DNA from: an uncultured bacterium
Lineage (GTDB): Bacteria > Oederibacteriota > Oederibacteriia > Oederibacteriales > Oederibacteriaceae
Length of the DNA: 64,000 bases
Direction: 5' to 3'
NCBI GenBank assembly: GCA_965112635.1
Contig: OZ218778.1
Span: 2,752,001 to 2,816,000 of the forward strand
Shown piece by piece: positions 26,319 to 39,712 of the stretch (positions are counted from its first letter, which is position 1; every line of letters begins with the position of its first letter). Below the pieces are notes generated by a model. The model worked only from the letters and a program-made list of their open reading frames with translations. It was not told the origin of the DNA and did not search any database. The translations under genes and the position numbers were made by a program.

Positions 26319-27869
26319 CTACTCTTTCCGCATATTTCCATCCCAGGCCGTAAATTTATTGCGGGCTATCTGGCGCCGGGCTTGTGAAATATACACCTTT
26401 TTCTCGATTTTCTCCGGGTTCCACTGGGCCAACAGGGCCTTTTTCAGGCGTTGGGACGGCCCCTTGTAGCCCGGTTTAGCGTAAAGGTCCTTTAACTCGT
26501 CCGGGTCTTTGGCGAGGTCGTAGAGCCGGCATTCTGCCGTGTGGTTATAAACCAGTTTAAAACGCTTGTCCCGGATAAACGCCCGCGGATGGTTCCAGCC
26601 TTCGCCGTTACATTCGCCAAACACCAGCCCTTTCCCGAATTTGTCTTTTCGCTCCCATTTGCCCTTTCCCTCCAGGGCCGGCAAAAGGGACGAGCCGGAC
26701 AAAGGCAGGTGGGGCGGCAGTTCCACGCCGGCGATGTCCACAAGCGTGGGAAAAAGGTCGATCAAGGAGGCCGGCTGGGCCACCCTTTTGCCAGAGGGAT
26801 AATGACCGGGCCAGCTGATGACCAGGGGCACCTTGACCGAGCTTTCCAGCATCACCACTTTGAACCATAACCCGTGCTCGCCGGCCATCTCGCCGTGGTC
26901 GGACACATAAATGACGACCGTGTTGGGGTCATCCTTCACGACATCAATGAGCTTGCCGGTTATTTCGTCCATCTCCGTGATCATGGCAAAATAAGTTTCC
27001 CTGCACCTGAGAATGGCTTCCTTGGGCAGGTCCACCAGGTTGCCGTTATATCGCTGAATATATTTGTCGCAGGTGTCCAGGCCCAGGCCTTTGGTGTTGA
27101 CCGGCAAATCAGCCTTACCCTTGTAGGTTTCTAAAATATCTTTCCTGGCCTTCCAGGGTGGATGGGGCAAATTGATGCTCGCGCATATGGCCCAGGGTTG
27201 CCCGGCCGGTTCCTTTTTCTTTTCCTTCAAAATTTTTAGAGTTTTTTCCAGGACCTCGTAATCGCGCCGCGTGGCCGGCATCCGCTCCGGCTTGTCCGCC
27301 CCGGCTTCCATGATCGCGTCCCAGTCGCTTTTGCCTCCTCCGCTCCTGTAATCGTCGCTGCTGTAGGGCAGAGGCTTGGTCCAGTCGTGGCTGACGCGGA
27401 TGCCGTAGGAAAAGAACTCCTCGCCGCTGGACCCTTCGCCGATGGGCCTCTGGTCAAACCCGTAATATTTTTGGTAGCCGTTGAAATGCATCTTACCGAC
27501 GAGGGTCGTCTCATAACCGGCCAGGGAAAGGATATGCGCCCAGGTCACCGTGTCCTCGGGCATGGCGCAGGAATTGTCCCACACCCCTATTTCGTGGCAG
27601 TACAGCCCGGACATAAAGGACTGCCGGCTGGGCGAGCACAAAGGATAGGGACAGTAGGTGTTTTCAAAGACCACGCCTGTCCGGGCCAAACGGTCCAGAT
27701 TGGGCGTGCGGACTACAGGGTGCCCGCTAAACCCCGCGTAACCCGCGTTGTGCTCGTCCGAATTTATAATAAGGATATTGGGAGGCCTTTTGCTGGTCTT
27801 CCTGGGCAAACGCTCATACCCCAGCGCATCCCCGTAATATCTCTTATATTTCGAAAAATCCGTCGCCAC
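26319..27869 (-). CDS. formylglycine-type sulfatase (choline-sulfatase-like)
   Basis: PNILIINSDEH, CSPSR (CxPxR), GKMH, SDHGEM; no signal peptide. Confidence 0.92.
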   Translation of the reverse strand: MATDFSKYKRYYGDALGYERLPRKTSKRPPNILIINSDEHNAGYAGFSGHPVVRTPNLDRLARTGVVFENTYCPYPLCSPSRQSFMSGLYCHEIGVWDNSCAMPEDTVTWAHILSLAGYETTLVGKMHFNGYQKYYGFDQRPIGEGSSGEEFFSYGIRVSHDWTKPLPYSSDDYRSGGGKSDWDAIMEAGADKPERMPATRRDYEVLEKTLKILKEKKKEPAGQPWAICASINLPHPPWKARKDILETYKGKADLPVNTKGLGLDTCDKYIQRYNGNLVDLPKEAILRCRETYFAMITEMDEITGKLIDVVKDDPNTVVIYVSDHGEMAGEHGLWFKVVMLESSVKVPLVISWPGHYPSGKRVAQPASLIDLFPTLVDIAGVELPPHLPLSGSSLLPALEGKGKWERKDKFGKGLVFGECNGEGWNHPRAFIRDKRFKLVYNHTAECRLYDLAKDPDELKDLYAKPGYKGPSQRLKKALLAQWNPEKIEKKVYISQARRQIARNKFTAWDGNMRKE

Positions 27870-27870
27870 C

Positions 27871-30021
27871 CTAACCTCCTACTCTGTTATACATGACCAA
27901 CTGACTGGTCATGGGGCTTTCCAGGCGGATAGCTAGGCCGGTCATGGCTAGTTCCTTGCCGCTGGTCCTGAACTTCTCCTGCTGGTTGTCCATGGCCACC
28001 TCGTAGGTGGCTCCCAGCTCAACGCCCCGCAGCCTCAAAAGGTACTCGTCCGCACCGCTCCCCACCTTGAACACTCCGGCGTACCCGGCCTTTTTATCCG
28101 GCATGGTGTATTCCAGCACGCACCACTCCGCCGGGCTGTACAGGCCGATGTCAGGGGTATGGTGATAAACAACCGGCTTGGCGGCCATGATGGGCCAGCA
28201 GAATTTTTTACCCATCTGGATATACCGCCTGGTTTTCTCGAAATAAGCCGTGCTCCGGTCAGCGTCCTGCCCTCCGAAACCAACAAAAACAGGCTTGGCA
28301 AAAAGCGTGACCCGCAAATGGGTGTCCAGGTCCGTCTTTTGGTGCGCCACCGGCATGTGGTTATGGTAGTAGCACAGGGCTTCGGGCGGCAAAAACCGCG
28401 TCAGGCCGTTGATGGCCCGGATGCTGCGCGGGAACATGGAAAAGTCCGACTCGCAGGCATAGTGGAACCGCGACATCATACCCAGGTCGTCGCGTCCGCC
28501 CCCGCTGGCGCAGCATTCCAGCGCCACCTGGGGCATTTCCCGGCGCACCTGGTCAAAGACGCTGTAGAGCGTCTCGTAATGCCTCCACCCTTCGCTCTCG
28601 CGGAACCCCAGGCGCTGCCTCTGCCCGCCCTCCTCGACACGCTCGTTGTAGTCGATCTTGAAAAAGTCCAGTTGGTGCTCTTTGATGACCCGGACCACCT
28701 CTTGCCTGAAGAACGCCGCGGCCTGGGGATGGCTCAGGTCCAGCACCTTCCTAATCTCCCGGTTATCGTCCGTGCGGAGCATCCATTCCGGATGTTCCCG
28801 GTTGAGCTTGCTCTTGACTCCGACCGTTTCCGGCTCCATCCACAGCCCAAAAAGAAGGCCCTTTTTGTGGCACAGGTCCCGGCAGGTTTTGAGGCCGCCA
28901 GGCAGCCAGCTCCCCACCTGCCAGTCGCCCCTATTCTCCGGCCAGCCTGCAAAATCATCCCCATACCAGCCCGCGTCCACCATGAAAGACTGCACGCCCA
29001 TTTCAGCCGCTATCTCTATCTCCCGGTGTATCCAGGTCCCGGGCTGTTCCACCACCCGGCCCGCCACGCTGAAGACCTCTTTGCCCCGCGGAGCCTGCGG
29101 GATGACCGAGGCCCGCAAATGTCCGTGCCAGGCTCCCACCATCTCATCCTCCCCGCCATGCAGGAGGCCCAGATGCGTTTCCGGCGTCTGGATGGTCTCG
29201 CCCGGCTCGATCACCCTCTGCGGCCCCGGAGCATGCGGCCCCATGCGGAAGGCCAGGTTCAGTCCCCTGGCCGGCTGGTTGGCCAGGTCGCGAAAGGGGT
29301 CGTTCCAAAATTCGGCGTACCAGTTGCCTGACCAGGCCAAAGACATCATGGCCGTCTCGCCGTTGGCCTGGTTGCGTACTACAAAAAACGGGTTGCCAAA
29401 TCCGCTCTGGCCAAAAGTGCTCTCCACCCGGCGCCAGCCTACAGGCAATTTTTCCCATTGAAAATTGCCTTCCGAGCCCTGGCACAGACCATTGAACCAC
29501 CCTAAAGAAAAGTTCCCTTCTTGAGCGGGAGCCATTTCACCCCAGTGTTCGCCCTGGTTCCAGGTCCACAACAGGCCTGACCAGGGGCTGACCCGGGAAA
29601 GGGCCGCGGGCCGGCCTCCCGTATTGGTGATGGCCAGGTAACGGCATAAAAAGGGCGTGCCATCCAGCCTAGTGATGACCTTGACCGTCAGCGGCCGCAG
29701 GGTATGGCGCAGTTCCACCACGGCTTCTATAGTATTAGGGCGTGCTCCCTCGCGCTGGCTTGTGGACACCATTTCCCAGCCGTTACGCAGGTCCTGGCCG
29801 TCTATTTCCAGGTCAAAAGCATGATAGGGCAGGACAATGGTATCTTCTTTGGGCAGGCTGGCCGCGAGGTTCTCCCTTTGCACCTGTCCGCTGGCCGACC
29901 AGTAAAGCCCTATCCAGCGGCCGTGGTGGAGCGCTTCCTCGTAAACAAGGGTGCCGGAAACATAACGGCTGGCTTTCCGCGCTCCCTGGTCATAAAAACA
30001 AACTTCCATTCCTTTGCTCAT
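27871..30021 (-). CDS. GH36 alpha-galactosidase-like
   Basis: FMVDAGWY, GDW, FGLWMEPE, FFKIDYN, ECCASGGGRDD. Confidence 0.88.
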   Translation of the reverse strand: MSKGMEVCFYDQGARKASRYVSGTLVYEEALHHGRWIGLYWSASGQVQRENLAASLPKEDTIVLPYHAFDLEIDGQDLRNGWEMVSTSQREGARPNTIEAVVELRHTLRPLTVKVITRLDGTPFLCRYLAITNTGGRPAALSRVSPWSGLLWTWNQGEHWGEMAPAQEGNFSLGWFNGLCQGSEGNFQWEKLPVGWRRVESTFGQSGFGNPFFVVRNQANGETAMMSLAWSGNWYAEFWNDPFRDLANQPARGLNLAFRMGPHAPGPQRVIEPGETIQTPETHLGLLHGGEDEMVGAWHGHLRASVIPQAPRGKEVFSVAGRVVEQPGTWIHREIEIAAEMGVQSFMVDAGWYGDDFAGWPENRGDWQVGSWLPGGLKTCRDLCHKKGLLFGLWMEPETVGVKSKLNREHPEWMLRTDDNREIRKVLDLSHPQAAAFFRQEVVRVIKEHQLDFFKIDYNERVEEGGQRQRLGFRESEGWRHYETLYSVFDQVRREMPQVALECCASGGGRDDLGMMSRFHYACESDFSMFPRSIRAINGLTRFLPPEALCYYHNHMPVAHQKTDLDTHLRVTLFAKPVFVGFGGQDADRSTAYFEKTRRYIQMGKKFCWPIMAAKPVVYHHTPDIGLYSPAEWCVLEYTMPDKKAGYAGVFKVGSGADEYLLRLRGVELGATYEVAMDNQQEKFRTSGKELAMTGLAIRLESPMTSQLVMYNRVGG

Positions 30022-30066: not shown

Positions 30067-30094
30067 AAAAAAAGGGCGGTTTTTAGGCCGCCCC
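30067..30094 (-). terminator. intrinsic terminator downstream of the PorV-like gene
   Basis: Minus strand GGGCGG-CCTAAAAA-CCGCCC followed by TTTTTTT. Confidence 0.85.
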
Positions 30095-30132: not shown

Positions 30133-31029
30133 TTACTGCCCCAATTGGTACACCAGGCTGATCTGTTGTGAAGACCCCAGGTCTCCATAGGGTAAAAATG
30201 CGTAGTCCAGCACCCACTTTTGCATCGTGAGCCCGAGCCCAAAACTAAGCCCATTGAGCCCTCCCTGCTGCTGGTCCGTAAAATTGGCCACATAACCGAT
30301 CCTTCCGGCTATCAGGGAATTATAACTGTCCTCCACGCCGAACTCCGCTTTGCCGTCCCCGCTGGACTCAAAATCCAGGGCCCCGGCGAACAGCATATTG
30401 TTTTTATCCCCGGCCGTAGTGTTATAGGAACCTCCGACCTGGGCTCCCGACGCCCGGTTGCTGCCGCCCACCTGGGTGCCGAGGTTGGTATAGGCCAGGC
30501 CCAGCCTCACGCCTTGGGCCGCCTTCCAGATGACCCCGAGGTCCGCTCCCAGGGAGTTGTAGTTCTGATCGGACAGGGTCTGCATAGTATCCTTGAGGGT
30601 CAGTCCCGCGTTCCATCCTTTGGCGACCTCCAGCCCCCAGCCCGCACCTATTTCTATATCTGAGGCGTTAAAACTGCCTGTTAACAATCCCGTGCTGTCC
30701 CGCTGGTCAAAGGAACCGAAGTTGACATAACCCAGGTAAGCTGCCATGCCTCCCATATTTTTGACCGGCATGCCGAAAACCACGGTATCTTTCATGGTGC
30801 TGGCTATCCACGAATTATGATGCACCGCCGCCTCCATGCCCGTAAGGCCGGCCAGGCCCGCCGGGTTCCACAAGATGGCGGAGGAATCATCAGCCACGCT
30901 CACGAACGCCGAACCCAGAGCCCCGGCTCTGGCACCGCCGCCGCTATTTTCCATGCCCAGGGCCGAGCCTGCCGCAGAAAGAGGGTTCTCGGTAGCGGCA
31001 TGCGAAAAACTCACTGCCATCAAGATCAC
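30133..31029 (-). CDS. PorV/PorQ-like (FadL-superfamily) outer-membrane beta-barrel; probable frameshift in signal peptide
   Basis: GARAGALGSAFVSVADDSSAILWNPAGL hallmark, amphipathic strands, LDYAFLPYGDLG...QISL. The SD-preceded ATG at 31058 is out of frame by one A. Confidence 0.85.
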   Translation of the reverse strand: MILMAVSFSHAATENPLSAAGSALGMENSGGGARAGALGSAFVSVADDSSAILWNPAGLAGLTGMEAAVHHNSWIASTMKDTVVFGMPVKNMGGMAAYLGYVNFGSFDQRDSTGLLTGSFNASDIEIGAGWGLEVAKGWNAGLTLKDTMQTLSDQNYNSLGADLGVIWKAAQGVRLGLAYTNLGTQVGGSNRASGAQVGGSYNTTAGDKNNMLFAGALDFESSGDGKAEFGVEDSYNSLIAGRIGYVANFTDQQQGGLNGLSFGLGLTMQKWVLDYAFLPYGDLGSSQQISLVYQLGQ

Positions 31030-31070
31030 TGCGGCCGCGAGGATTATTGTTTTTTCATTTTTTCCTCCTC

Positions 31071-33623
31071 CTACTTGATCACTACGAATTTTTTGGTGGA
31101 TTGGGTCTCCGAACTGCCGTCGCTGTAGCTGATCCGGACGATGTAGAAATACACGCCCGGCGCAAAGCTTTTGATGGAGAACTGCACGCTGTTGGTGCCG
31201 GCCGCGCCGGTCCCGTTCAGGGTGTCCACCAGCCTGCCGCCTTCGTTATACACCAGAACCTTGATCGTGCCCGGCCCTTTCAGGGCCACGGCCACGCCGG
31301 CCGTATCGCCCCTGGCGGGCTGGGGATAGACATAGGAGCTCCCGCTGGGCGCGGTTACGACGGGGTTGGGCGTGGGCTGGACGATAAGAAAGCCCAGCAC
31401 ACGGTTGTTATTTTCATCAGCCACATAAACATTGTTCCCTGCCGCGCAAACACCATATGGAAAATACAGGTTGTTAGGGCCGGTATCTACATTGTCGTTG
31501 GGCTTTCTCGTGGTGAAATCAGGATGGCCCAAGACCAGGTCTGCCGAGGCCCCGCTGCTCGTGGGGATGGTGTTGAAGACAAGCACGCGGGAATTGCCGT
31601 TGTCAGAGACGAAAAGCTGTCCGTTGCTTGCCCAAACTCTGACAGGGCAGTTCATGGTGCTGGCGCTGTATCCCGTACTGCCTGAGTTCAAATTGGCCTG
31701 GCCGATCACCATATCGGCCGGCCTGGCGTAGCTCCCGTTGCCCGGGAAAGAATTGAATACCAGCACCCGATTATTATAGAAATCCGCCACAAAGATCCTG
31801 GTCCCGTCGCTCCAGACCCCGTGCGGATTGTTCATGGTCGTTGCGCTGCATCCGGTTCCAAAGTTGGTGCCGTTCGTTTGTCCTAGGATAGCGTCCGCGG
31901 CAGCTCCGTCGCTCGCGGGAAAACTGTTGTAGACCAGGACCCGGTTATTGTAGTCGTCGGCGATCAAGACACGCGTGCCGTCGCTCCACACTTCCGCCGG
32001 GCCATTCAGGGATGACTGCGACGTCGCTCCGCCTGCGTTCGCGCTGTGATTCGCCATGTTGACCTGCCCGATGACCCTGTTGGCCGAGGCTCCGGCGGCC
32101 GGAAGGCCCGCGACGTTATTATAGACCAGCACGCGGTGATTCAGCGTATCGGCCACGAACAGGTTCCCACCCCCGATACAGGCTGACCAGGGATAGTACA
32201 GGCCCGTGGCACCCCCGGCACTGGGGGTATTGCTGACCATATTGGCCTGCCCCACCACGATGACGGGGGTGCAGTTGGTTGTGGGCAGGGTATTGTAGAT
32301 GAGCACCCGGCTGTTTTCGATATCTGTCACCACCAGCCTGGTCCCGTCCGTGGAGATTCCGCTTGGAGAGGCCAGGGTCGAGACAGTGCAGGCCGTGGCT
32401 CCCAGGTTGACATTGCCAGAAACGAAATCCGATTGGCCCACGACCACGCTGGCTGAAGCGCCGCTGGAGGTGGGAATGCTGTTGTAGATCAAAACCCGGC
32501 AATTGGAATTATCGGCGATGAAAAGTTTGGAGCTTTTGGCGAAACAACCGCTGGGCGCGGCCAGACTGGTCTGGCTCGTCCCGGGGTTGGAAGCGCTGAC
32601 CAGGTCTCCCTGCCCCACGGCCACATTGGCCGAAGCGCCCGGGGTCGTCGGCACCGTGTTATAGATCAATACCCGGTTGTTTTTGTAGTCAGCGATATAT
32701 AGCTTGGTCCCGTCGCTCCAGGTTGACCAGGGATCGTATAAGGTTCCGGCAGCTACACTGCCTCCCTGGTTGGGGCTGTTCCCCGTATAGTTGGCCTGCC
32801 CGACGACATTGTCCGCGGCCACATGGTCCGCGCCCGTGGGGAGGGCGTTGTAGATCAAGACCCGGCTGTTGTTCTGGTCCGCCACAAAAAGCTTGGTGCC
32901 GTCGCTGCTCACCCCGTTCGGACCGTAGAGAGAGTACTGCGAACATGCCCCGCCCTCGTTGGCGCTGCTCGCGGTCATATTGGCCTGGCCGATGACATGG
33001 TCGGCGGTACCGTTGCTGACCGGCAGAAGGGCAATATTGTTGTACACCAAAACACGGTTATTTCCGTAATCCGCCACCACCATTCTGGTCCCGTCGCCCC
33101 AGACGGCATAGGGCGAGCTCATGGTCGCACTGGTCGCTGAAGAGCCCCAGTGTCCCACCACGGTGTCCGCGGCCTGGTTGTTGGCCGTCGGCACGGTGTT
33201 GTAGATCAGGACCCGATTATTGCCGGTGTCGGCGATATAAAGCCGCGTCCCATCGCAGTAAACCCCCTGGGGGTCGCTGAGATAGTTGTTTAGGGTAACG
33301 AAATCGTTCTGGTTGGTTTCCACATCACTCAAACAGGTCTGGCCGATGACCACATCGGGTCTGGCCAGATTGGAGGTCGGGATGGTGTTGTAGATCAAAA
33401 TGCGGTCATTGTTCGCATCCGCGACAAAAAGCCGTGTGCCGTCACTACAAACAGAACCAGGGTAATTGATTCCCAGGCTTCTTCCCACAGTGCCGTTGGC
33501 CCCGTTGTTCGTGTAATTGGTCTGCCCCAGCACGCACTGCGCGCTTTGGAAATTGGTCAGCGCCCAGACCAGCACCCCCGTGACCAGCATCAAACTTATT
33601 GCTAATAATAAAGCCCTTTTCAT
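31071..33623 (-). CDS. secreted NHL-repeat beta-propeller protein with T9SS-like C-terminal domain
   Basis: Signal peptide MKRALLL; 12 repeats with SDGT.L.VAD..N.RVLIYN; PTP linker; CTD YVYPQP...VYNEGGRLV...APGVYFY...KKFVVIK. Confidence 0.88.
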   Translation of the reverse strand: MKRALLLAISLMLVTGVLVWALTNFQSAQCVLGQTNYTNNGANGTVGRSLGINYPGSVCSDGTRLFVADANNDRILIYNTIPTSNLARPDVVIGQTCLSDVETNQNDFVTLNNYLSDPQGVYCDGTRLYIADTGNNRVLIYNTVPTANNQAADTVVGHWGSSATSATMSSPYAVWGDGTRMVVADYGNNRVLVYNNIALLPVSNGTADHVIGQANMTASSANEGGACSQYSLYGPNGVSSDGTKLFVADQNNSRVLIYNALPTGADHVAADNVVGQANYTGNSPNQGGSVAAGTLYDPWSTWSDGTKLYIADYKNNRVLIYNTVPTTPGASANVAVGQGDLVSASNPGTSQTSLAAPSGCFAKSSKLFIADNSNCRVLIYNSIPTSSGASASVVVGQSDFVSGNVNLGATACTVSTLASPSGISTDGTRLVVTDIENSRVLIYNTLPTTNCTPVIVVGQANMVSNTPSAGGATGLYYPWSACIGGGNLFVADTLNHRVLVYNNVAGLPAAGASANRVIGQVNMANHSANAGGATSQSSLNGPAEVWSDGTRVLIADDYNNRVLVYNSFPASDGAAADAILGQTNGTNFGTGCSATTMNNPHGVWSDGTRIFVADFYNNRVLVFNSFPGNGSYARPADMVIGQANLNSGSTGYSASTMNCPVRVWASNGQLFVSDNGNSRVLVFNTIPTSSGASADLVLGHPDFTTRKPNDNVDTGPNNLYFPYGVCAAGNNVYVADENNNRVLGFLIVQPTPNPVVTAPSGSSYVYPQPARGDTAGVAVALKGPGTIKVLVYNEGGRLVDTLNGTGAAGTNSVQFSIKSFAPGVYFYIVRISYSDGSSETQSTKKFVVIK

Positions 33624-33767
33624 TGCCTGTCTCCTCTCAAAATGCATTAATTTTATGAGCTTAATTTAGCTGGTAAAAGAAAGAAGTCAAGTTAGAAAAA
33701 TATCCTGGTGGAAAATAATCGTTGTCAAAAATTCTTTCGGCCCAGGCCTCCGTTTTTTCCCCATTCC

Positions 33768-33778
33768 TGCTGTATAAT
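33768..33778 (+). promoter_or_regulatory. putative -10 box in divergent intergenic region
   Basis: Perfect TATAAT at 33773-78, 45 nt before ATG 33823. Confidence 0.35.
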
Positions 33779-33822
33779 CTAAAGAAAGACATCGCTAAGG
33801 TTAGGAAAGGCAGAAAAATCAC

Positions 33823-36402
33823 ATGGAACTGCAAAAAAATTCCGTCTCTGTCAGGGAAAAGGTCAAACTCCTGGTCTATTTTGACGTGGTTTTGGACCGT
33901 CCCATCATCGTGGACCTGGTCTTCGAGGGCGAGACCCCGGACATAGACAAACTGGCCCAGATCATCAACCTCGAGGACCTGGTCGAATCGGTCCGACAAG
34001 CCCATAAAAAGCTGCCCTTTGAGGAGATCTTTTCCCCCGAGCAATCCGGTAAAGAGGCAACAGTCTCCCCAGTCGGCCCCCAGACAACGTTTAAGATACC
34101 CGCCGAACTGATGGACAAAAGGTTCGTGTTCCCGGCCTCCATCAAGAAGATCTTGGCCAAAGCGCCTCCCGCCGAGGTCAGGACCCTGCTTTACGGCCAC
34201 GGCGAAGGAGAACTCTTTCACAGGTACGGCCTCCTGGGCCGGGCCGCCCAACAGGAGCTCATGGCCTCCTCGGAACTCCCTTTTTACTGCGCCACCCTGG
34301 CCGTGCTGGCGAACTGGGCCAGCGATGAACTGCACAACCAGCTTCTGGAACCCGGCAAGGTCAAGGAAAGCTACGACAGCCTGCGGGTCAAACTGCACAG
34401 CCACACCATCCACCTGCCCGAAGCCGTGATGAACGGCATGATGGCCAAGCGCATCCTGGACAGCCCCCTGTCGCTCTATGCCCTGCGGCGCAAACCCGCG
34501 CCCGGCCCCGTGGACGAAGTGGAACAGCTTTACCTGGCCTACCCCAACGCTTACTTCCTGACCCCGGCCCTGGTGCAGTGCCTGGACAGGCTTTTCGAGG
34601 CCGAGCCCAACACCTTGGGCCACAATGAAAAGACCTACGAAACCCTGGTCGAAAGATTGGAAGACACAGCCGAGCACATCCGCCAGGCCGGCCAGTTCTG
34701 GAAAAAGCAAAAGTCCCGCAACGGGTTGAACTGGTTCCTCGCCATCGTCTGTTTTTTAGTGGTCAGCGGCGCGCTCTTCCTGCCCTGGCTCCTCAATCCC
34801 TTTAACCAGGAACTCATCCAGGACAAACTTTCCCGGCCCGAATGGATCAGCCGTCTGGTCCAGGCCCTGACCGCCGGGGCGGCCGCGGGGGCCGTCTGGT
34901 TTCTGGGAGGCAGGGCCGTTAACATTTGGAAGCGGGCAAGGTCCTCAGCCTGGCAAAAATTCCGCGAGTTCAAGAAGATGCTCTCCACCATCCCCCTGTT
35001 CCGGAGGCACGCGGCCAAGGCCGCGGTCTATGCCAAGCTCACCAAGGCGTTCGCGGCCAGCCTGCCGGAGTTCGCGGTCACCAAGCTCAACGACCTGTCC
35101 GGCCTGCTGCCCTACTGGAAAAAAGCGCCCCACGAGATGCGGCGCCTGGCCCGCCAGGCCAGGAAGGCCAAGCGTCTTTCCCAGGCCGGCCTTCTCAGGG
35201 AACTGCCCGCCATCCTGGAGAACTACGCCCGGCTCAAAATGGACGAGCTGGACTACAAAAAACTCAGCAGCCTGCAGCTGCCTCCCCTGGATTTTTCCGG
35301 CCAGTATTCGGATGACCAGCTCATGGAAAAATGGTCCCAAAACTCCTGCGTCTGCTACGACGACCCCTTCCCCAACCTCATCTCCGGCCAGGTCAAGCAG
35401 GGCGGGGTCTATTTCATCGATGTCATCGGCTCCACGGAAATGTCCACCCGCCAGAACCTGAGCAACGCCCTGGAGGTCTACGGCCGTCTGCTCTACCAGG
35501 TCAACGAGTCCGGCAGCACCCCCCTCTGGCGCAAGGAAGTGGGGGACGGCCGCATCTACTGTTTCCCGCCCCAGGAGGCCCTGGCCCGGGCCGTGCTCAC
35601 GGCCCAGGGAGCGGCCCACCCCAAGATCGGCCTGTCCATCGGCGTCGGGCTTTCCGTGGGCGAGCTCTACACCGATGTCCGCACCGGCGACTACCAGAAC
35701 GAGGTCACCAACCGGGCCTCGCGCCTTAACACCCGGGATGAGACCGTGGGCGCCTATGTCCGGACGCGTTACGCGGACCAACCTTTCAAGGTGCACGTCA
35801 AATACGGCCGCCTGTATAACAGCGGCATCGCCCTGGATGAAAAGGCCCTGCACAGCCTGGGGCTGACCGATTGCCCGGCCCTGGCGCCCGACCCCTGTTT
35901 TGAATGGCGCTTTCCCCTGGTGGACAGGTTCGGCCTGTCCGGGTCCGCGGGCACCATGGCCTATATCGTGGAGCGCCTCGAGCCGGACAAGCTCCAGTCG
36001 CGGGTCAGGGCCATGGCCAAGATGATGAAACCCGAGCATGACTTCCACAGGATGCACAGGGATTTTGACGGGGTCAATGAGCTGGCCTTCGAGGTCTTTT
36101 GCTCCAAATCCGACCCCACCCTTTATTACGGCACCCATTTAGAGGAAGCCGGGGTCCGGGAATACCTCCGTGCCCACGGCGTGACGGACCTGAGTTTTGC
36201 TTCCGCGGAGGTGGAACATCAGACGCCTGTGAGCGTGGCCCAGGTCAGCCTTCCCAACATGCAGAACGTCAGCGTGTTCCTCAAAGAGCGCAAGACCGTC
36301 CTCAAAGGGCTGGGAGCCACGACCATCGCCGAAGTGAATATTTCCAGGGCTTTCCTCGGGGAGGACCAGGTAGGCCTCAAAGGCTTTTTGTCCAGGCTTT
36401 GA
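33823..36402 (+). CDS. two-TM membrane protein with divergent class III adenylate/guanylate cyclase domain
   Basis: FIDVIGST (35410-), KEVGDG, IGVGLSVGE, GDYQNEVTNRASRL, C-terminal LKGLG...AEV. TMs at about 34720-34920. Confidence 0.8.
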   Translation: MELQKNSVSVREKVKLLVYFDVVLDRPIIVDLVFEGETPDIDKLAQIINLEDLVESVRQAHKKLPFEEIFSPEQSGKEATVSPVGPQTTFKIPAELMDKRFVFPASIKKILAKAPPAEVRTLLYGHGEGELFHRYGLLGRAAQQELMASSELPFYCATLAVLANWASDELHNQLLEPGKVKESYDSLRVKLHSHTIHLPEAVMNGMMAKRILDSPLSLYALRRKPAPGPVDEVEQLYLAYPNAYFLTPALVQCLDRLFEAEPNTLGHNEKTYETLVERLEDTAEHIRQAGQFWKKQKSRNGLNWFLAIVCFLVVSGALFLPWLLNPFNQELIQDKLSRPEWISRLVQALTAGAAAGAVWFLGGRAVNIWKRARSSAWQKFREFKKMLSTIPLFRRHAAKAAVYAKLTKAFAASLPEFAVTKLNDLSGLLPYWKKAPHEMRRLARQARKAKRLSQAGLLRELPAILENYARLKMDELDYKKLSSLQLPPLDFSGQYSDDQLMEKWSQNSCVCYDDPFPNLISGQVKQGGVYFIDVIGSTEMSTRQNLSNALEVYGRLLYQVNESGSTPLWRKEVGDGRIYCFPPQEALARAVLTAQGAAHPKIGLSIGVGLSVGELYTDVRTGDYQNEVTNRASRLNTRDETVGAYVRTRYADQPFKVHVKYGRLYNSGIALDEKALHSLGLTDCPALAPDPCFEWRFPLVDRFGLSGSAGTMAYIVERLEPDKLQSRVRAMAKMMKPEHDFHRMHRDFDGVNELAFEVFCSKSDPTLYYGTHLEEAGVREYLRAHGVTDLSFASAEVEHQTPVSVAQVSLPNMQNVSVFLKERKTVLKGLGATTIAEVNISRAFLGEDQVGLKGFLSRL

Positions 36403-36567
36403 CCCTTGCTACAGGCTTTCCGAAAGAAACCATTTATTATCCACCGCATTATTGCATTGAAACCAAAGGGTCCATGCCTCTAATAAAAACCTAACAATTG
36501 CAATAAGCTGCAAAATAGTCTATATTTGTCTGAAAATTACAAAAACTTTTTATGAAAGGTTTTAAAT

Positions 36568-36999
36568 ATGACAAACAGTTCCGGAAAAGCCATATTGTTT
36601 TTACTATTGTTAATGGTTGCTCTTTCTCCGGCCCTAGTTTTAGCTACTGGGATATCTTCTCCCACTTTCACTAGTACCGCCACTTCAACCTCTACCGCTA
36701 CCTTTACTCCCACCCAGACCCCCGTACCTGCTCCCAGGATGATTGTGGCGCCGGTGCCGGTCAAAGCCGGCCAGCCGGTGTGCATGTACTTTGATATCAC
36801 CCCGGTAACCGCCAAATGGACGGTCTACAACACCGTTGGAGAGGTCATCGCCACTTTGAACTTCAGCGGACCGGCCAAGCAGTGCTGGGACACCGGAGCA
36901 GCCAAGCTTGCTCCCGGCCTCTACTGGATAGAAATAAAAGTGGTCGATCCTGACACCAACGTATTCACCGAGTGGAAACGCATAGCCATACAACCCTGA
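36568..36999 (+). CDS. secreted protein consisting only of Thr/Pro linker plus T9SS-like CTD
   Basis: Signal peptide, SPTFTSTATSTSTATFTPTQTP, then a 90-aa CTD (APVP...VYNTVGEV...APGLYWI...KRIAIQP). Confidence 0.8.
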   Translation: MTNSSGKAILFLLLLMVALSPALVLATGISSPTFTSTATSTSTATFTPTQTPVPAPRMIVAPVPVKAGQPVCMYFDITPVTAKWTVYNTVGEVIATLNFSGPAKQCWDTGAAKLAPGLYWIEIKVVDPDTNVFTEWKRIAIQP

Positions 37000-37005
37000 C
37001 CAAAA
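36727..37005 (+). repeat. duplicated CTD-coding segment, copy 1 (copy 2 at 38438-38716)
   Basis: 74 of 90 aa identical by manual count. The last 36 nt, including stop and CCAAAA, are identical (36970-37005 = 38681-38716). Confidence 0.92.
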
Positions 37006-37024
37006 CTAAGGAGAAAGAAGTCTT

Positions 37025-38710
37025 ATGCTCAAAAAACTGAGTTTGCTGGGATTTATATTTCTGCTCCTGGCCCTATTTTCCAGGGCAAACGCCATGAAAG
37101 CCCTCATCGGAACCCCGGGCCACGCCATCGTGGAAGCGTTAGCGGATAATGGCCAATGGATGGAGGTGGGGCAATTAAGTTTTAACTTAACGCCATCCAA
37201 GCAGAAATTGGATTTTCCAGCAGCGCTGTTCGGAAAGAGCACTGAGTTAAAACTTCGCATCACTCAGCCTGATAACGATGAAAGCCAGTACGACTATATA
37301 GCCCTGGAAGCGGACGGTGTCCTCATGAAACCCCGGGCGCTCCTGCACCAGGAAACCAATGAGTCGCTTATTAAGAAACTGGCCAAGGTTGACCATGATG
37401 TCGCGGAAATGCACGGCCAAACCCTCATCGGGCAATGGCCTAAATCAGCCCGCGCCCGCAGCTTGACTTTGACCCTCATGGGCCGCAGTTCCAAGACCAG
37501 CGACCTCCCTTTCAGCCCTTTTACTCTCTATGATCAGAAAAAATCCCAGCAAACAAAATCATTCGTTCCTTATACCTTCAGCGCCAAACCGGGCAGTACG
37601 CTTAATTTCAAGACTGAAAAACTAGACACCAATTCAGGTCACCCCAGCGCCCCCATTGCCGTGAATATGGTCATAGAAAAAGACCGGCTCAAAGGGCATT
37701 TGGATTTCGGCCCGGATAACGACCCAGGTGACGATGATTTTGCCTCCATCCTGGCCTTCGGCGATAAGGGCGAGGTCAGAAAATTTAAAGTCACCCCGCT
37801 GGATTCGCACTGGGGCCAGGCCCAATGGGCTTACAGCCCCCTGGTTCCGTGGCAGCATATGAGATTTGATTTTAATATTCCGCTTAACGAACTACCTCAG
37901 CGCGGGGATGGGAAGGTAGCCATCGCCTTCCTGGCCTATGGGACATGCGGCTATTCTATTACGAACGGCACTGGTAGTCTGGATTGCTATAATGGCGAAG
38001 AGGACTGTTGGACAGGTTCAAATTGGTATGCCAACGTCGCCAGTTCTTCCACGCCAACATCATTTTCCGTACCTGTCGGCACTCCCCTGTGGTTCTATAT
38101 CAATACTAAGATGGTAACTGGAACCACCACTTTCCCGACCGGCACACCCATTAATGTCACCATGATCTTGAAAATGTATAATGCCTCCAATACTTTGGTC
38201 TACACCTCCACCATTACGGACAGCTTTACTGCCCCCAGTCCGGGGGGTACGATTTGGCTCCCTTGCGATGGATTCACCTATACTCCATCCTGCAGTGGAA
38301 CCTTCAAAATAAAGGGATCAGCCTCGATCGCCGGAGACACCAATACCGCCGATGACATGGGGATCCCTTATCAGCCTGAATTAGATATGACCGTGACCGG
38401 AGGTTCCCCCTGTTACACAGACACCCCCACCCCCATCCCTGCACCCAAGATCATCATGGCTCCGGTGCCGGTCAAAGCCGGCCAGCCGGTCTGTATGTAT
38501 TTTAACAACACCCCTTCTTCCGCCAAATGGACGGTCTACAACACCGCCGGGGAGGTCGTGGCGGTCCTTAATTTCAGCGGCCCGGCCAAACAGTGCTGGG
38601 ATACCGGCGCGGCCAAACTTGCTCCAGGCCTCTACTGGATAGAGATCAAAGTAGTCAACGCGGATTCCTCCATGTATACAGAGTGGAAACGCATAGCCAT
38701 ACAACCCTGA
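37025..38710 (+). CDS. secreted modular protein with T9SS-like CTD
   Basis: Signal peptide MLKKLSLL; beta-rich middle; Thr/Ser/Cys-rich Ig-like part; TPTP linker; same CTD as 36568. Confidence 0.82.
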   Translation: MLKKLSLLGFIFLLLALFSRANAMKALIGTPGHAIVEALADNGQWMEVGQLSFNLTPSKQKLDFPAALFGKSTELKLRITQPDNDESQYDYIALEADGVLMKPRALLHQETNESLIKKLAKVDHDVAEMHGQTLIGQWPKSARARSLTLTLMGRSSKTSDLPFSPFTLYDQKKSQQTKSFVPYTFSAKPGSTLNFKTEKLDTNSGHPSAPIAVNMVIEKDRLKGHLDFGPDNDPGDDDFASILAFGDKGEVRKFKVTPLDSHWGQAQWAYSPLVPWQHMRFDFNIPLNELPQRGDGKVAIAFLAYGTCGYSITNGTGSLDCYNGEEDCWTGSNWYANVASSSTPTSFSVPVGTPLWFYINTKMVTGTTTFPTGTPINVTMILKMYNASNTLVYTSTITDSFTAPSPGGTIWLPCDGFTYTPSCSGTFKIKGSASIAGDTNTADDMGIPYQPELDMTVTGGSPCYTDTPTPIPAPKIIMAPVPVKAGQPVCMYFNNTPSSAKWTVYNTAGEVVAVLNFSGPAKQCWDTGAAKLAPGLYWIEIKVVNADSSMYTEWKRIAIQP

Positions 38711-38716
38711 CCAAAA
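38438..38716 (+). repeat. duplicated CTD-coding segment, copy 2
   Basis: See copy 1 at 36727-37005. Confidence 0.92.
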
Positions 38717-38730
38717 AGGAGATTAGAGAT

Positions 38731-39660
38731 ATGAAAAAATTTCTTTGTTTTTTTATTCTGGCCTTGATCCTGGGGGGTTCAGCCTATGCCGACAATGCCT
38801 CGGTGGCCGTTCCCTGGCTCAAAATATCCAGCAGTCCCAGGGCGACCGGCATGGCCGAAGCCTTTGTGGCCGTCGCGGATGACGTACAGGGTTTGCAATC
38901 CAATCCTGCCGGCCTGGCCTATATGGACAAGCAGCAGCTTTTACTGGCCAACAATATGTGGCTCCAGGATTCCATGATCCAGCACGTGGTCTGGGGCTTG
39001 CCCCTGGGCAACAGCGCTCTGGCCGCCAGCGTGGACTATATAACTTTCGGCAGCGTGGATAAATACAGCCTGGACCCCAACACCGGCCTTCCGGTTGGGC
39101 AGGGCAGCTTCACTCCCACCGCTATGCATGTGGACCTGGGTTACGGGCTCCTGGTCGGCGATTTCAGTTTGGGCGCCGCGGCCAAAGTGCTCAACCAGAC
39201 CATCGACAGCTCAACCCTCTCCGGCTTTGCCGCGGACCTGGGTGCCGGCTGGAGATGGCAGGGTACGGGGCTGTCCCTGGCCTGCGCGGTGCAGAATATC
39301 GGCGGCCAGGTCAGCGGTTCGGACCTTCCCCTGAACCTCAAGGTGGGCACAGCCTATCGGTCCGCTTTTACCTTAAAAGGCGATACTGAAAAAAATAATT
39401 TCATCGTTGCCGCGGATGCCAACCTGTCCCCAGCTGACAGCAATGCTGATTTTTACTCCTTGGGAGCGGAACTATGGCTCAGGTCGTTGATGGCGCTGCG
39501 GGGTGGGTATAAATTGATGAACCAGGGTGATGTGAACGGCGCGACCGGCTTCACCTATGGGTTGGGCTTCCGCATGTCCTCAGCCGAGATCAACTACGCC
39601 CTGATGCCCCGCGCCAATATGGGCCAGAGCCAGCAGCTCTCCATACTCTTCACTTTCTGA
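38731..39660 (+). CDS. PorV/PorQ-like outer-membrane beta-barrel
   Basis: SD AAGGAG then MKKFLCFF signal peptide; WLKISSSPRATGMAEAFVAVADD...NPAGLA; INYALMP; C-terminal LSILFTF beta-signal. Confidence 0.88.
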   Translation: MKKFLCFFILALILGGSAYADNASVAVPWLKISSSPRATGMAEAFVAVADDVQGLQSNPAGLAYMDKQQLLLANNMWLQDSMIQHVVWGLPLGNSALAASVDYITFGSVDKYSLDPNTGLPVGQGSFTPTAMHVDLGYGLLVGDFSLGAAAKVLNQTIDSSTLSGFAADLGAGWRWQGTGLSLACAVQNIGGQVSGSDLPLNLKVGTAYRSAFTLKGDTEKNNFIVAADANLSPADSNADFYSLGAELWLRSLMALRGGYKLMNQGDVNGATGFTYGLGFRMSSAEINYALMPRANMGQSQQLSILFTF

Positions 39661-39680: not shown

Positions 39681-39712
39681 AAAAAAGCCCTGGAAACCTC
39701 CAGGGCTTTTTT
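39681..39712. terminator. bidirectional intrinsic terminator
   Basis: Perfect AAAAAAGCCCTGGA-AACC-TCCAGGGCTTTTTT between convergent genes. Confidence 0.92.

Follow-up and report, generated by a model that had tools for sequence, protein, structure and literature searches.

The DNA analysed here, referred to as the window, is a stretch of 64,000 nucleotides (nt) from an uncultured bacterium (positions 2,752,001 to 2,816,000 of contig OZ218778.1, assembly GCA_965112635.1), the genome of which consists of a single contig of 2,876,006 bases and is 96.9% complete. The phylum, called Firestonebacteria in our analysis, is placed beside Elusimicrobia and Goldbacteria in passages of a 2019 paper (PMC7031533), and the nearest genomes available for comparison were related to our genome only as members of the same phylum. 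The host is not a member of the Bacteroidota, as a first-pass annotation of the window had already suspected. The window contains two gene units in which one or two genes for secreted proteins with a C-terminal sorting domain (CTD), resembling type IX secretion system (T9SS) sorting domains, are followed by a gene for an outer-membrane barrel of the PorV/PorQ family. We consider it probable, although far from certain, that the two units belong to a phylum-wide T9SS-like display system, in which the cargo would be exported in a SprA-dependent manner and then be held by its uncleaved tail on the co-encoded barrel.

Unit 1 is encoded on the minus strand. The cargo gene (31071..33647) is an open reading frame (ORF) for a secreted NHL-repeat beta-propeller protein of 858 amino acids (aa), recognized by Pfam NHL with an expectation value (E) of 2e-42 and by the T9SS tail model TIGR04183 with 23.6 bits. 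The final 90 residues (31074..31343, minus strand) form the CTD (E 1e-19 with our own CTD profile), and belong to a class, 'A', that is common to three further paired cargos of the same genome and to cargos in relatives. Barrel A is encoded downstream on the same strand (30133..31029; 298 aa from the first in-frame GTG), and is followed by an intrinsic terminator, read from the sequence as a G+C-rich hairpin and then seven T (30067..30094, minus strand). Unit 2 lies on the plus strand and starts with a gene for a small protein of 143 aa (36568..36999) that comprises a signal peptide, a Thr/Ser/Pro-rich linker and a CTD (E 5.6e-15, own CTD profile), and no passenger domain. It continues with a cargo of 561 aa (37025..38710) that has a signal peptide, a passenger, a Pro/Thr linker and a CTD (38438-38707; E 2.2e-16, own CTD profile); the passenger matched no Pfam family and gave nothing in a protein-atlas search. 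The start of barrel B (38731..39660), which is 309 aa long and has a signal peptide, is located 20 nt past the stop of this cargo, and a 9-base-pair hairpin followed by six T was read as the intrinsic terminator of the unit (39686..39712, plus strand). The units are divergently oriented and flank a gene for an 859-aa membrane protein (33823..36402, plus strand), which the first-pass annotation had left unmentioned. That annotation had described two outward-pointing units of cargo, barrel and terminator, and all genes of these units were found as described. The differences that it had reported between the units are also real: the CTDs of the 143-aa and 561-aa proteins are 82% identical to each other at the protein level and ~78% at the DNA level, whereas the unit 1 CTD is 23% identical to the unit 2 CTDs, and barrels A and B are divergent paralogues that share 32% identity.

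The identity of the barrels was assessed with the NCBIfam model for the PorV/PorQ family, NF033709 (cut-off 90 bits), the Pfam PorV model (cut-off 27), and the equivalog models NF033710 for PorV (cut-off 250) and NF033711 for PorQ (cut-off 220). With the family model, barrel A reached 121.6 bits and barrel B 156.6 bits, and barrel B scored 27.3 bits with Pfam PorV, just over the cut-off of 27. Matches to Toluene_X/FadL (PF03349) were restricted to short N-terminal stretches and amounted to 15.9 and 16.5 bits (E 0.003-0.0045), far under the cut-off of 29.7. Partial alignments with UPF0164 (PF03687; cut-off 21.4) gave 37 bits for barrel A and 22.9 bits for barrel B; this Pfam family of Treponema outer-membrane proteins is without known function and overlaps with PorV-like barrels. 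When a profile made from 30 barrels of the genome was compared with the PDB, PorV was matched with 6.1e-31, and the next entries, OmpF and TodX (0.0017), were found near 1e-3. The AlphaFold2 model of barrel B (predicted local distance difference test (pLDDT) 90.6; predicted template modelling score (pTM) 0.85) shows a FadL-type barrel with an N-terminal plug segment, for which PorV is the nearest solved structure: in a Foldseek search the best matches were the PorV chains 8gl6_F (8.2e-17) and 6h3i_F (7.4e-14), with template modelling scores of 0.73-0.75, compared to 8e-9 for FadL. Both the profile and the fold comparisons thus agree with the earlier reading that the barrels are PorV-like and do not group with FadL transporters. 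A search with barrel B alone, by shared words, found no relative. Since TPR domains are fused to some of the barrels, an iterated barrel profile strayed into TPR proteins and was discarded in favour of the NF033709 coordinates. Seven long barrel ORFs were tested for additional domains, of which four carry a C-terminal TPR domain and one fibronectin type III domains. Barrels A and B are plain barrels.

The CTDs had been likened to T9SS type A sorting domains, and profile comparisons support that they are tails of the T9SS kind. The last ~70 residues of the unit 1 cargo scored 23.6 bits with TIGR04183, just over its cut-off of 23, and 20.8 bits with PF18962, under its cut-off of 27. The CTD of the 561-aa protein gave only 16.5 bits with TIGR04183, under the cut-off, and the 143-aa protein gave no match. 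Genome-wide, there were 29 matches over the TIGR04183 cut-off, and some of the paired cargos pass PF18962 or FlgD_ig. For our own CTD profile, we used the tails of 25 cargos of this genome that are linked to a barrel. Among the PDB entries this profile matched the immunoglobulin-like (Ig-like) domain of FlgD (6.5e-10), the tail of PorZ (3.2e-9; residues 674-758 of 758) and the tail of PorU (1.8e-8; residues 1058-1154 of 1156), whereas two cargo CTDs that have been solved on the translocon were matched far more weakly (0.002 and 0.039). PorU and PorZ are T9SS proteins that keep their CTD uncleaved, bound to PorV and PorQ, respectively, according to passages of PMC10202324. The PorU model (NF033707) matched 19 places in our genome, each in the tail part of the model only. 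The model of the unit 2 CTD is a seven-strand Ig-like sandwich (pLDDT 89.3), which is the fold of type A CTDs; a fold search with this model was unspecific, with generic Ig-like folds in the lead and PorZ at rank 48, and does not show membership. The passengers of 20 of the 25 linked cargos were scanned, which revealed six kinds of propeller, including FG-GAP, BNR, PQQ-like, Kelch and SBBP, two subtilases, DUF11 proteins, giant proteins without a family, and CTD-only proteins. The CTD-only partners measure 131-210 aa and the largest cargo 8,344 aa. Since these passengers are mutually unrelated and the tail is their only common feature, the common partner of the barrels is the CTD.

The pairing of CTD proteins with barrels extends over the whole genome. 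NF033709 gave 37 matches, of which 31 were over the cut-off, and our CTD profile detected 80 ORFs with a CTD at the extreme C-terminus. For 24 of 36 barrel matches, a CTD protein detected with this profile ends at most 400 nt upstream on the same strand, and a 25th directly linked cargo, a protein of 6,061 aa, was missed by the profile and matched by the A2 profile. With 80 CTD ORFs and ~2,267 genes, about 1.3 of the 36 barrels would be expected in such a position by chance (binomial P ~1e-26, using a rough model). A barrel is located 0.4-5 kilobases (kb) downstream of eight further CTD proteins and 5-15 kb downstream of another seven, whereas one giant CTD protein has a barrel directly upstream. 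Some units consist of two cargos to one barrel, or two barrels to one cargo.

Pairing was also found in the relatives, where the first-pass annotation had suggested looking for it. All 31 phylum genomes searched contain both elements, with 10-55 barrel matches and 11-128 CTD matches each. When 30 top-scoring barrels from eight relatives were inspected, 13 were located directly behind a CTD ORF and two more were the second barrel of a tandem that follows a cargo; the 13 of 30 is a lower bound, as the CTD profile comes from one genome. Outside this genome, all 13 of the best matches to barrel A were directly behind a CTD ORF, and among the 11 best matches to barrel B this applied to five by profile and to one more by eye. 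The numbers of barrels and CTDs per genome correlate (Spearman 0.61, 31 genomes), but genome size correlates with both of them (0.61 and 0.51), and for this reason we do not count this as evidence. In each relative, the best-scoring barrel is not preceded by a CTD gene, and these barrels are 61-74% identical between families, compared to at most ~45% for cargo-linked barrels. Their nearest counterparts in our genome (C1:2292704, 2335528, 504549 and 1816941) are likewise without cargo. The cargo-less barrels are candidates for general, shared PorV-like carriers. In the regions C1:204124-229008 and C1:366904-378927, up to seven CTD proteins of ~700-1,280 aa are encoded in a row without a barrel in the neighbourhood; several of these proteins are paralogues in which repeated Ig-like domains precede the tail.

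No sprA, porKLMN or porU had been noticed in the window, and the units had been taken to lie outside the canonical T9SS context. The genome-wide search for a complete T9SS, which had been proposed as a check, made clear that this cannot be maintained in full, since a single gene for a SprA/Sov-type translocon was found outside the window, at genome positions 115017-120557. The protein of 1,846 aa scores 244 bits with TIGR04189 (cut-off 200) and matches this model in five pieces, and its gene adjoins lptF and lptG. A homologue is present in 31 of the 31 phylum genomes searched. Known T9SSs cannot do without a proton-driven motor, and their cargo is fixed to lipopolysaccharide by a sortase. The genes for these functions were searched for with profiles in six-frame translations (E ≤0.001), a search that very divergent or unrelated substitutes would escape. 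GldK, GldL and GldM gave no matches in the genome, whereas all three were detected in both Cytophagales controls. GldL was over its cut-off in none of 99 phylum genomes, with one match at E 7e-4. GldN was matched in none of 31 genomes, in a search without a positive control. Thus, neither the GldL/PorL-GldM/PorM motor nor the GldK/PorK-GldN/PorN ring of the canonical system was detected. The C25 domain of PorU, found in both Cytophagales controls, was not found in the genome either, so that by profile search the genome appears to have no gene for the sortase that removes CTDs. PorP/SprF (TIGR03519) gave no match, compared to eight and five over the cut-off in the two controls. ORFs of 596-1,676 aa with a C25 peptidase domain do occur in 8 of 99 phylum genomes, and may represent PorU-like sortases or gingipain-like cargos.

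The first-pass annotation had also proposed that each CTD type has its own barrel, and that this could be tested by comparing CTD and barrel trees. For the 25 pairs within the genome, the distances between barrels and those between CTDs correlate in a Mantel test with a Pearson r of 0.46, a value reached by 0 of 5000 permutations, and for 7 of the 25 pairs the nearest neighbour is identical in the two matrices. A few families of duplicated units, for example one with barrels that are 74% and CTDs that are 63% identical, account for this signal; unit 1 belongs to a duplicated-unit family together with three other paired barrels of the genome. A barrel tree was then calculated with 42 rows, comprising the phylum's best hits to barrels A and B, the 13 cargo-linked barrels of the eight-genome sample and six barrels from this genome, which is a chosen and not a random set. 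On this tree the CTD class changes five times, whereas 500 shuffles of the labels gave a mean of 18.8 changes and a minimum of 14, so that none of the 500 reached five. The unit 2 CTD class was only found beside barrels of the barrel B clade (Shimodaira-Hasegawa-like approximate likelihood ratio test support 88), and there in three families; by score it was assigned to three of five members of this clade and to none of 26 elsewhere, with one more assigned by eye. Barrel A falls in a clade of 18 rows (support 99) with cargos that mostly carry the unit 1 CTD class. Cognate recognition, at least in part, is suggested by the fact that the pairing of CTD class and barrel clade is kept across families. 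The congruence itself indicates a linkage that has been kept for a long time, and is compatible with such recognition.

Combining these findings, we propose the following route for the products of units 1 and 2. Cargo and barrel would both be exported by Sec, as is suggested by the N-terminal signal peptides read by eye, and the barrel would, going by its family, insert into the outer membrane. The Ig-like CTD would, by analogy with Flavobacterium, target the cargo to the single SprA/Sov-type translocon, where the PorV-family barrel encoded just downstream would act as the carrier that takes over the CTD. The CTD is probably not cut off, because no PorU-type sortase was found, and the cargo could then stay non-covalently bound to its barrel, in the way that PorV holds PorU and PorQ holds PorZ in Porphyromonas. 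With cargo and barrel co-transcribed, one anchor would be supplied per cargo. Barrel B would serve both the CTD-only protein and the 561-aa protein of unit 2, the tails of which are nearly identical, and the approximately half of the CTD proteins that have no barrel of their own would rely on shared barrels, for example the conserved ones without cargo.

The closest likeness is with the PorU-PorV and PorZ-PorQ pairs of the attachment complex of Porphyromonas gingivalis, in which an uncleaved CTD holds a protein on a barrel of the PorV/PorQ family (passages of PMC10202324). It is also the tails of PorU and PorZ that our CTD profile matches best among the T9SS entries in the PDB. In both Cytophagales controls, a C25/PorU gene closely precedes the PorV gene on the same strand, and porU and porV are neighbouring genes in many Bacteroidota. 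The difference is that the arrangement is used here ~25 times in one genome, for propellers, subtilases and giant proteins, that PorU was not found and therefore a route for cleavage and attachment to lipopolysaccharide would be missing, and that the barrels fail the PorV and PorQ equivalog models. A second likeness is with the type B CTDs, for which the genes of cargos such as SprB of Flavobacterium johnsoniae are linked to that of a dedicated PorP/SprF barrel (SprF for SprB) needed there for secretion and localisation, as described in parts of PMC12618676 and PMC9143113. However, our barrels are from another family, without a TIGR03519 match, and the tails are of the type A/FlgD-Ig kind. With the SprA-PorV core of the Bacteroidota T9SS (PDB 6H3I and 8GL6) the proposed system would have in common a SprA-type protein, PorV-like carriers and C-terminal Ig-like sorting domains. 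It differs from this core in that GldK/L/M/N and PorU were not found and that the SprA homologue is 1,846 aa long compared to a model of 2,319 positions. From the Bacteroidota T9SS as a whole, it also differs in the number of barrels over the cut-off, 31 compared to 3 and 1 in the controls, and in its occurrence in a phylum outside the Bacteroidota and their allies.

Several observations weigh against a display system of this kind. Barrel A scored 44.2 bits with the PorV equivalog and 98 bits with the PorQ equivalog, and barrel B 71.4 and 92.7 bits, all below the cut-offs; judged by these scores, the barrels are members of the PorV/PorQ family and orthologues of neither PorV nor PorQ. Barrel B is ~60-80 residues shorter than the solved PorV chains, and for this reason its CTD-binding loops may differ. 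The Mantel correlation drops to a Spearman rho of only 0.12 (reached by 305 of 5000 permutations), and in one family, f8, near-identical barrels stand behind two different CTD classes. Moreover, congruence and Mantel correlation are no proof of recognition, because linked genes are inherited together. As many as 39 of the 80 CTD proteins lack a barrel on their own strand in both the 15 kb downstream and the 2 kb upstream. The proposal of one barrel per CTD type has therefore held up in part: adjacency is massively enriched and the CTD class follows the barrel tree, but these 39 proteins, the units with two cargos or two barrels, the cargo-less barrels and the two classes of f8 do not fit it. 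In Flavobacterium, the release of carrier and substrate from the translocon was deduced to be the step that requires energy (passages of PMC10994853), and no motor was found here. Finally, the assembled sequence gives barrel A no proper start.

The start of barrel A deserves a closer look, since the barrels had been said to begin within about 20 nt of the cargo stop, which applies to barrel B and not to the reading frame of barrel A as it stands. A strong Shine-Dalgarno sequence (31070-31063) and an ATG (31058-31056) are present on the minus strand 12 nt past the stop of the unit 1 cargo, followed by a run of six A (31055-31050; together 31050..31070, as read from the sequence). At this run, the ATG is one base out of the barrel A frame as assembled. 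The earliest in-frame start is the GTG at 31029, 41 nt past the cargo stop, and it would yield a signal peptide without a charged beginning. One peat-metagenome contig of 151 nt that is otherwise identical contains a seventh A, which restores the frame, so that the ATG opens the barrel A frame and yields a normal signal peptide; being a single contig with a depth of 2.7, this is weak evidence. The likeliest readings are an assembly homopolymer error or natural variation in the length of the run, and a decaying gene would be a further possibility.

A further-reaching interpretation, which we entertain tentatively and would not assume, is that the system is a minimal type IX-like pathway that consists of a SprA pore, CTD tails and PorV-family carriers, has neither a GldKLMN motor nor a sortase, and leaves each cargo class permanently docked on its own co-evolving barrel. 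If true, pore and carrier would be the ancestral core of type IX secretion, and the release of the carrier would be spontaneous or driven by another motor.

A possible motor was noticed near two of the giant cargos. The region C1:1811106-1829004 encodes a FliF-FliG fusion, followed by MotA, MotB, a 496-aa protein, a TPR protein, a PorV-like barrel and a CTD protein of 3,740 aa, and a second FliF-FliG fusion is found near C1:25715-29113, right after a barrel-TPR fusion and the CTD protein of 8,344 aa. These fusions beside units of a barrel and a giant cargo, one with its own MotA and MotB, are candidates for the motor of those units at least. Separate fliF and fliG genes of normal size are present in the genome as well. 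As a phylum-wide motor the fusion was rejected, since most phylum genomes have only the separate, normal-size fliF and fliG, and fused forms occur in few.

It is also conceivable, and in our view rather unlikely, that the export pathway is the same but that there is no cognate recognition, any PorV-family barrel carrying any CTD, with adjacency serving co-expression or dosage and the units spreading by duplication. The low rank correlation in the Mantel test, in which a small number of recently duplicated units provide the signal, would fit this, as would the f8 barrels and the half of the CTD proteins without a barrel nearby. There is a precedent in Flavobacterium, where one PorV recognizes all type A CTDs according to PMC12618676, and in print a single PorV is given for all type A tails. 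Opposed to these points is the barrel tree, on which the unit 2 CTD class remains confined to the barrel B clade in three families and the five class changes are well below the 14 or more seen in all 500 shuffles. In addition, the barrels have diverged to 22-32% identity, which would be beyond what is expected of a generic carrier.

Slam proteins, which consist of TPR repeats and a 14-strand barrel, are encoded beside their cargo. In this type XI system of Neisseria, an outer-membrane barrel with TPR repeats is encoded beside the surface protein that it displays, and recognition occurs via the C-terminal domain of the cargo. The barrels described here could likewise be dedicated, SprA-independent exporters or assembly factors for their neighbours, in the manner of Slam/type XI or two-partner secretion, which would explain the one-cargo-one-barrel gene order of many units and the failure to find a T9SS motor, and would be in line with the C-terminal TPR domains of four of the seven long barrels, which show sub-threshold matches to the Slam TPR model. 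This would correspond to the possibly motor-independent system of the first-pass annotation. We find it improbable. All 31 of the phylum genomes searched encode a SprA-type translocon, and the barrels are small, plugged and of the PorV/FadL type, which is not known to pass folded or giant proteins, whereas the cargos reach 8,344 aa. The barrel family differs from that of Slam as well, the TPR domain is located at the opposite end and in some barrels only, and neither barrel A nor barrel B has one.

That the barrels are FadL-like uptake channels accompanying surface enzymes or binding proteins, as in a polysaccharide utilization locus, and have nothing to do with the tail, is highly improbable: PorV and FadL have a common fold, Toluene_X matches the barrels weakly, and unit 1 adjoins glycoside-hydrolase-like and sulfatase genes, but these matches are far below the cut-off, the barrel profile finds PorV with 6.1e-31 and TodX with 0.0017, the partners share only the CTD and some consist of little else, a terminator stands between barrel A and the hydrolase gene, and the control genomes other than Bacteroides gave no NF033709 match.

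Other genes in the vicinity of the units are as follows. Downstream of unit 1, on the minus strand (26319-30021), are genes for a sulfatase and a 716-aa glycoside-hydrolase-like protein, which are separated from unit 1 by the barrel A terminator. The sulfatase gene matches choline-sulfatase/arylsulfatase models, below their cut-offs. The 859-aa membrane protein encoded between the units gave only a sub-threshold match to DUF2207_C, and its C-terminal part a weak protein-atlas lead to adenylate/guanylate cyclase-like clusters (score 0.90-0.91), which is no more than a lead. We found no support for its membership in unit 1 or unit 2.

In print, T9SS is described as a system of the Bacteroidota or of the Fibrobacteres-Chlorobi-Bacteroidetes group, at least in the passages that we found. 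Among the papers listed in our literature search, in which supplements were not covered, there was none on a type IX-like system in Firestonebacteria or Elusimicrobia, and nothing relevant on T9SS or SprA in candidate phyla. PMC7031533, on Firestonebacteria, says nothing on secretion of the type IX kind, and in the parts of the texts that the search returned, Elusimicrobia and 'type IX secretion' co-occur only via reference lists or in unrelated text. PorV-family barrels dedicated to single type A cargos were not found in this search either, and there were no mentions of PorV-like, PorV2 or PorQ-like proteins outside the Bacteroidota. The curated NCBI models would already name the barrels and the pore in an automatic annotation.

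Assuming that export and docking take place as proposed, the units would apply the principle of PorU-PorV and PorZ-PorQ to ordinary cargo, in parallel to the type B tails with their PorP/SprF shuttles. A phylum with the pore, the tails and dozens of carriers, and in which no motor or sortase genes were found, bears on the question what the minimal working core of T9SS is, and on what its energy is actually needed for. The many natural pairs of CTD and barrel form a ready set for working out how a tail is recognized by a PorV-type barrel, and could serve as modular parts for surface display. For the organism, these pairs would define much of its surface, in the form of propellers, proteases and giant adhesin-like proteins.

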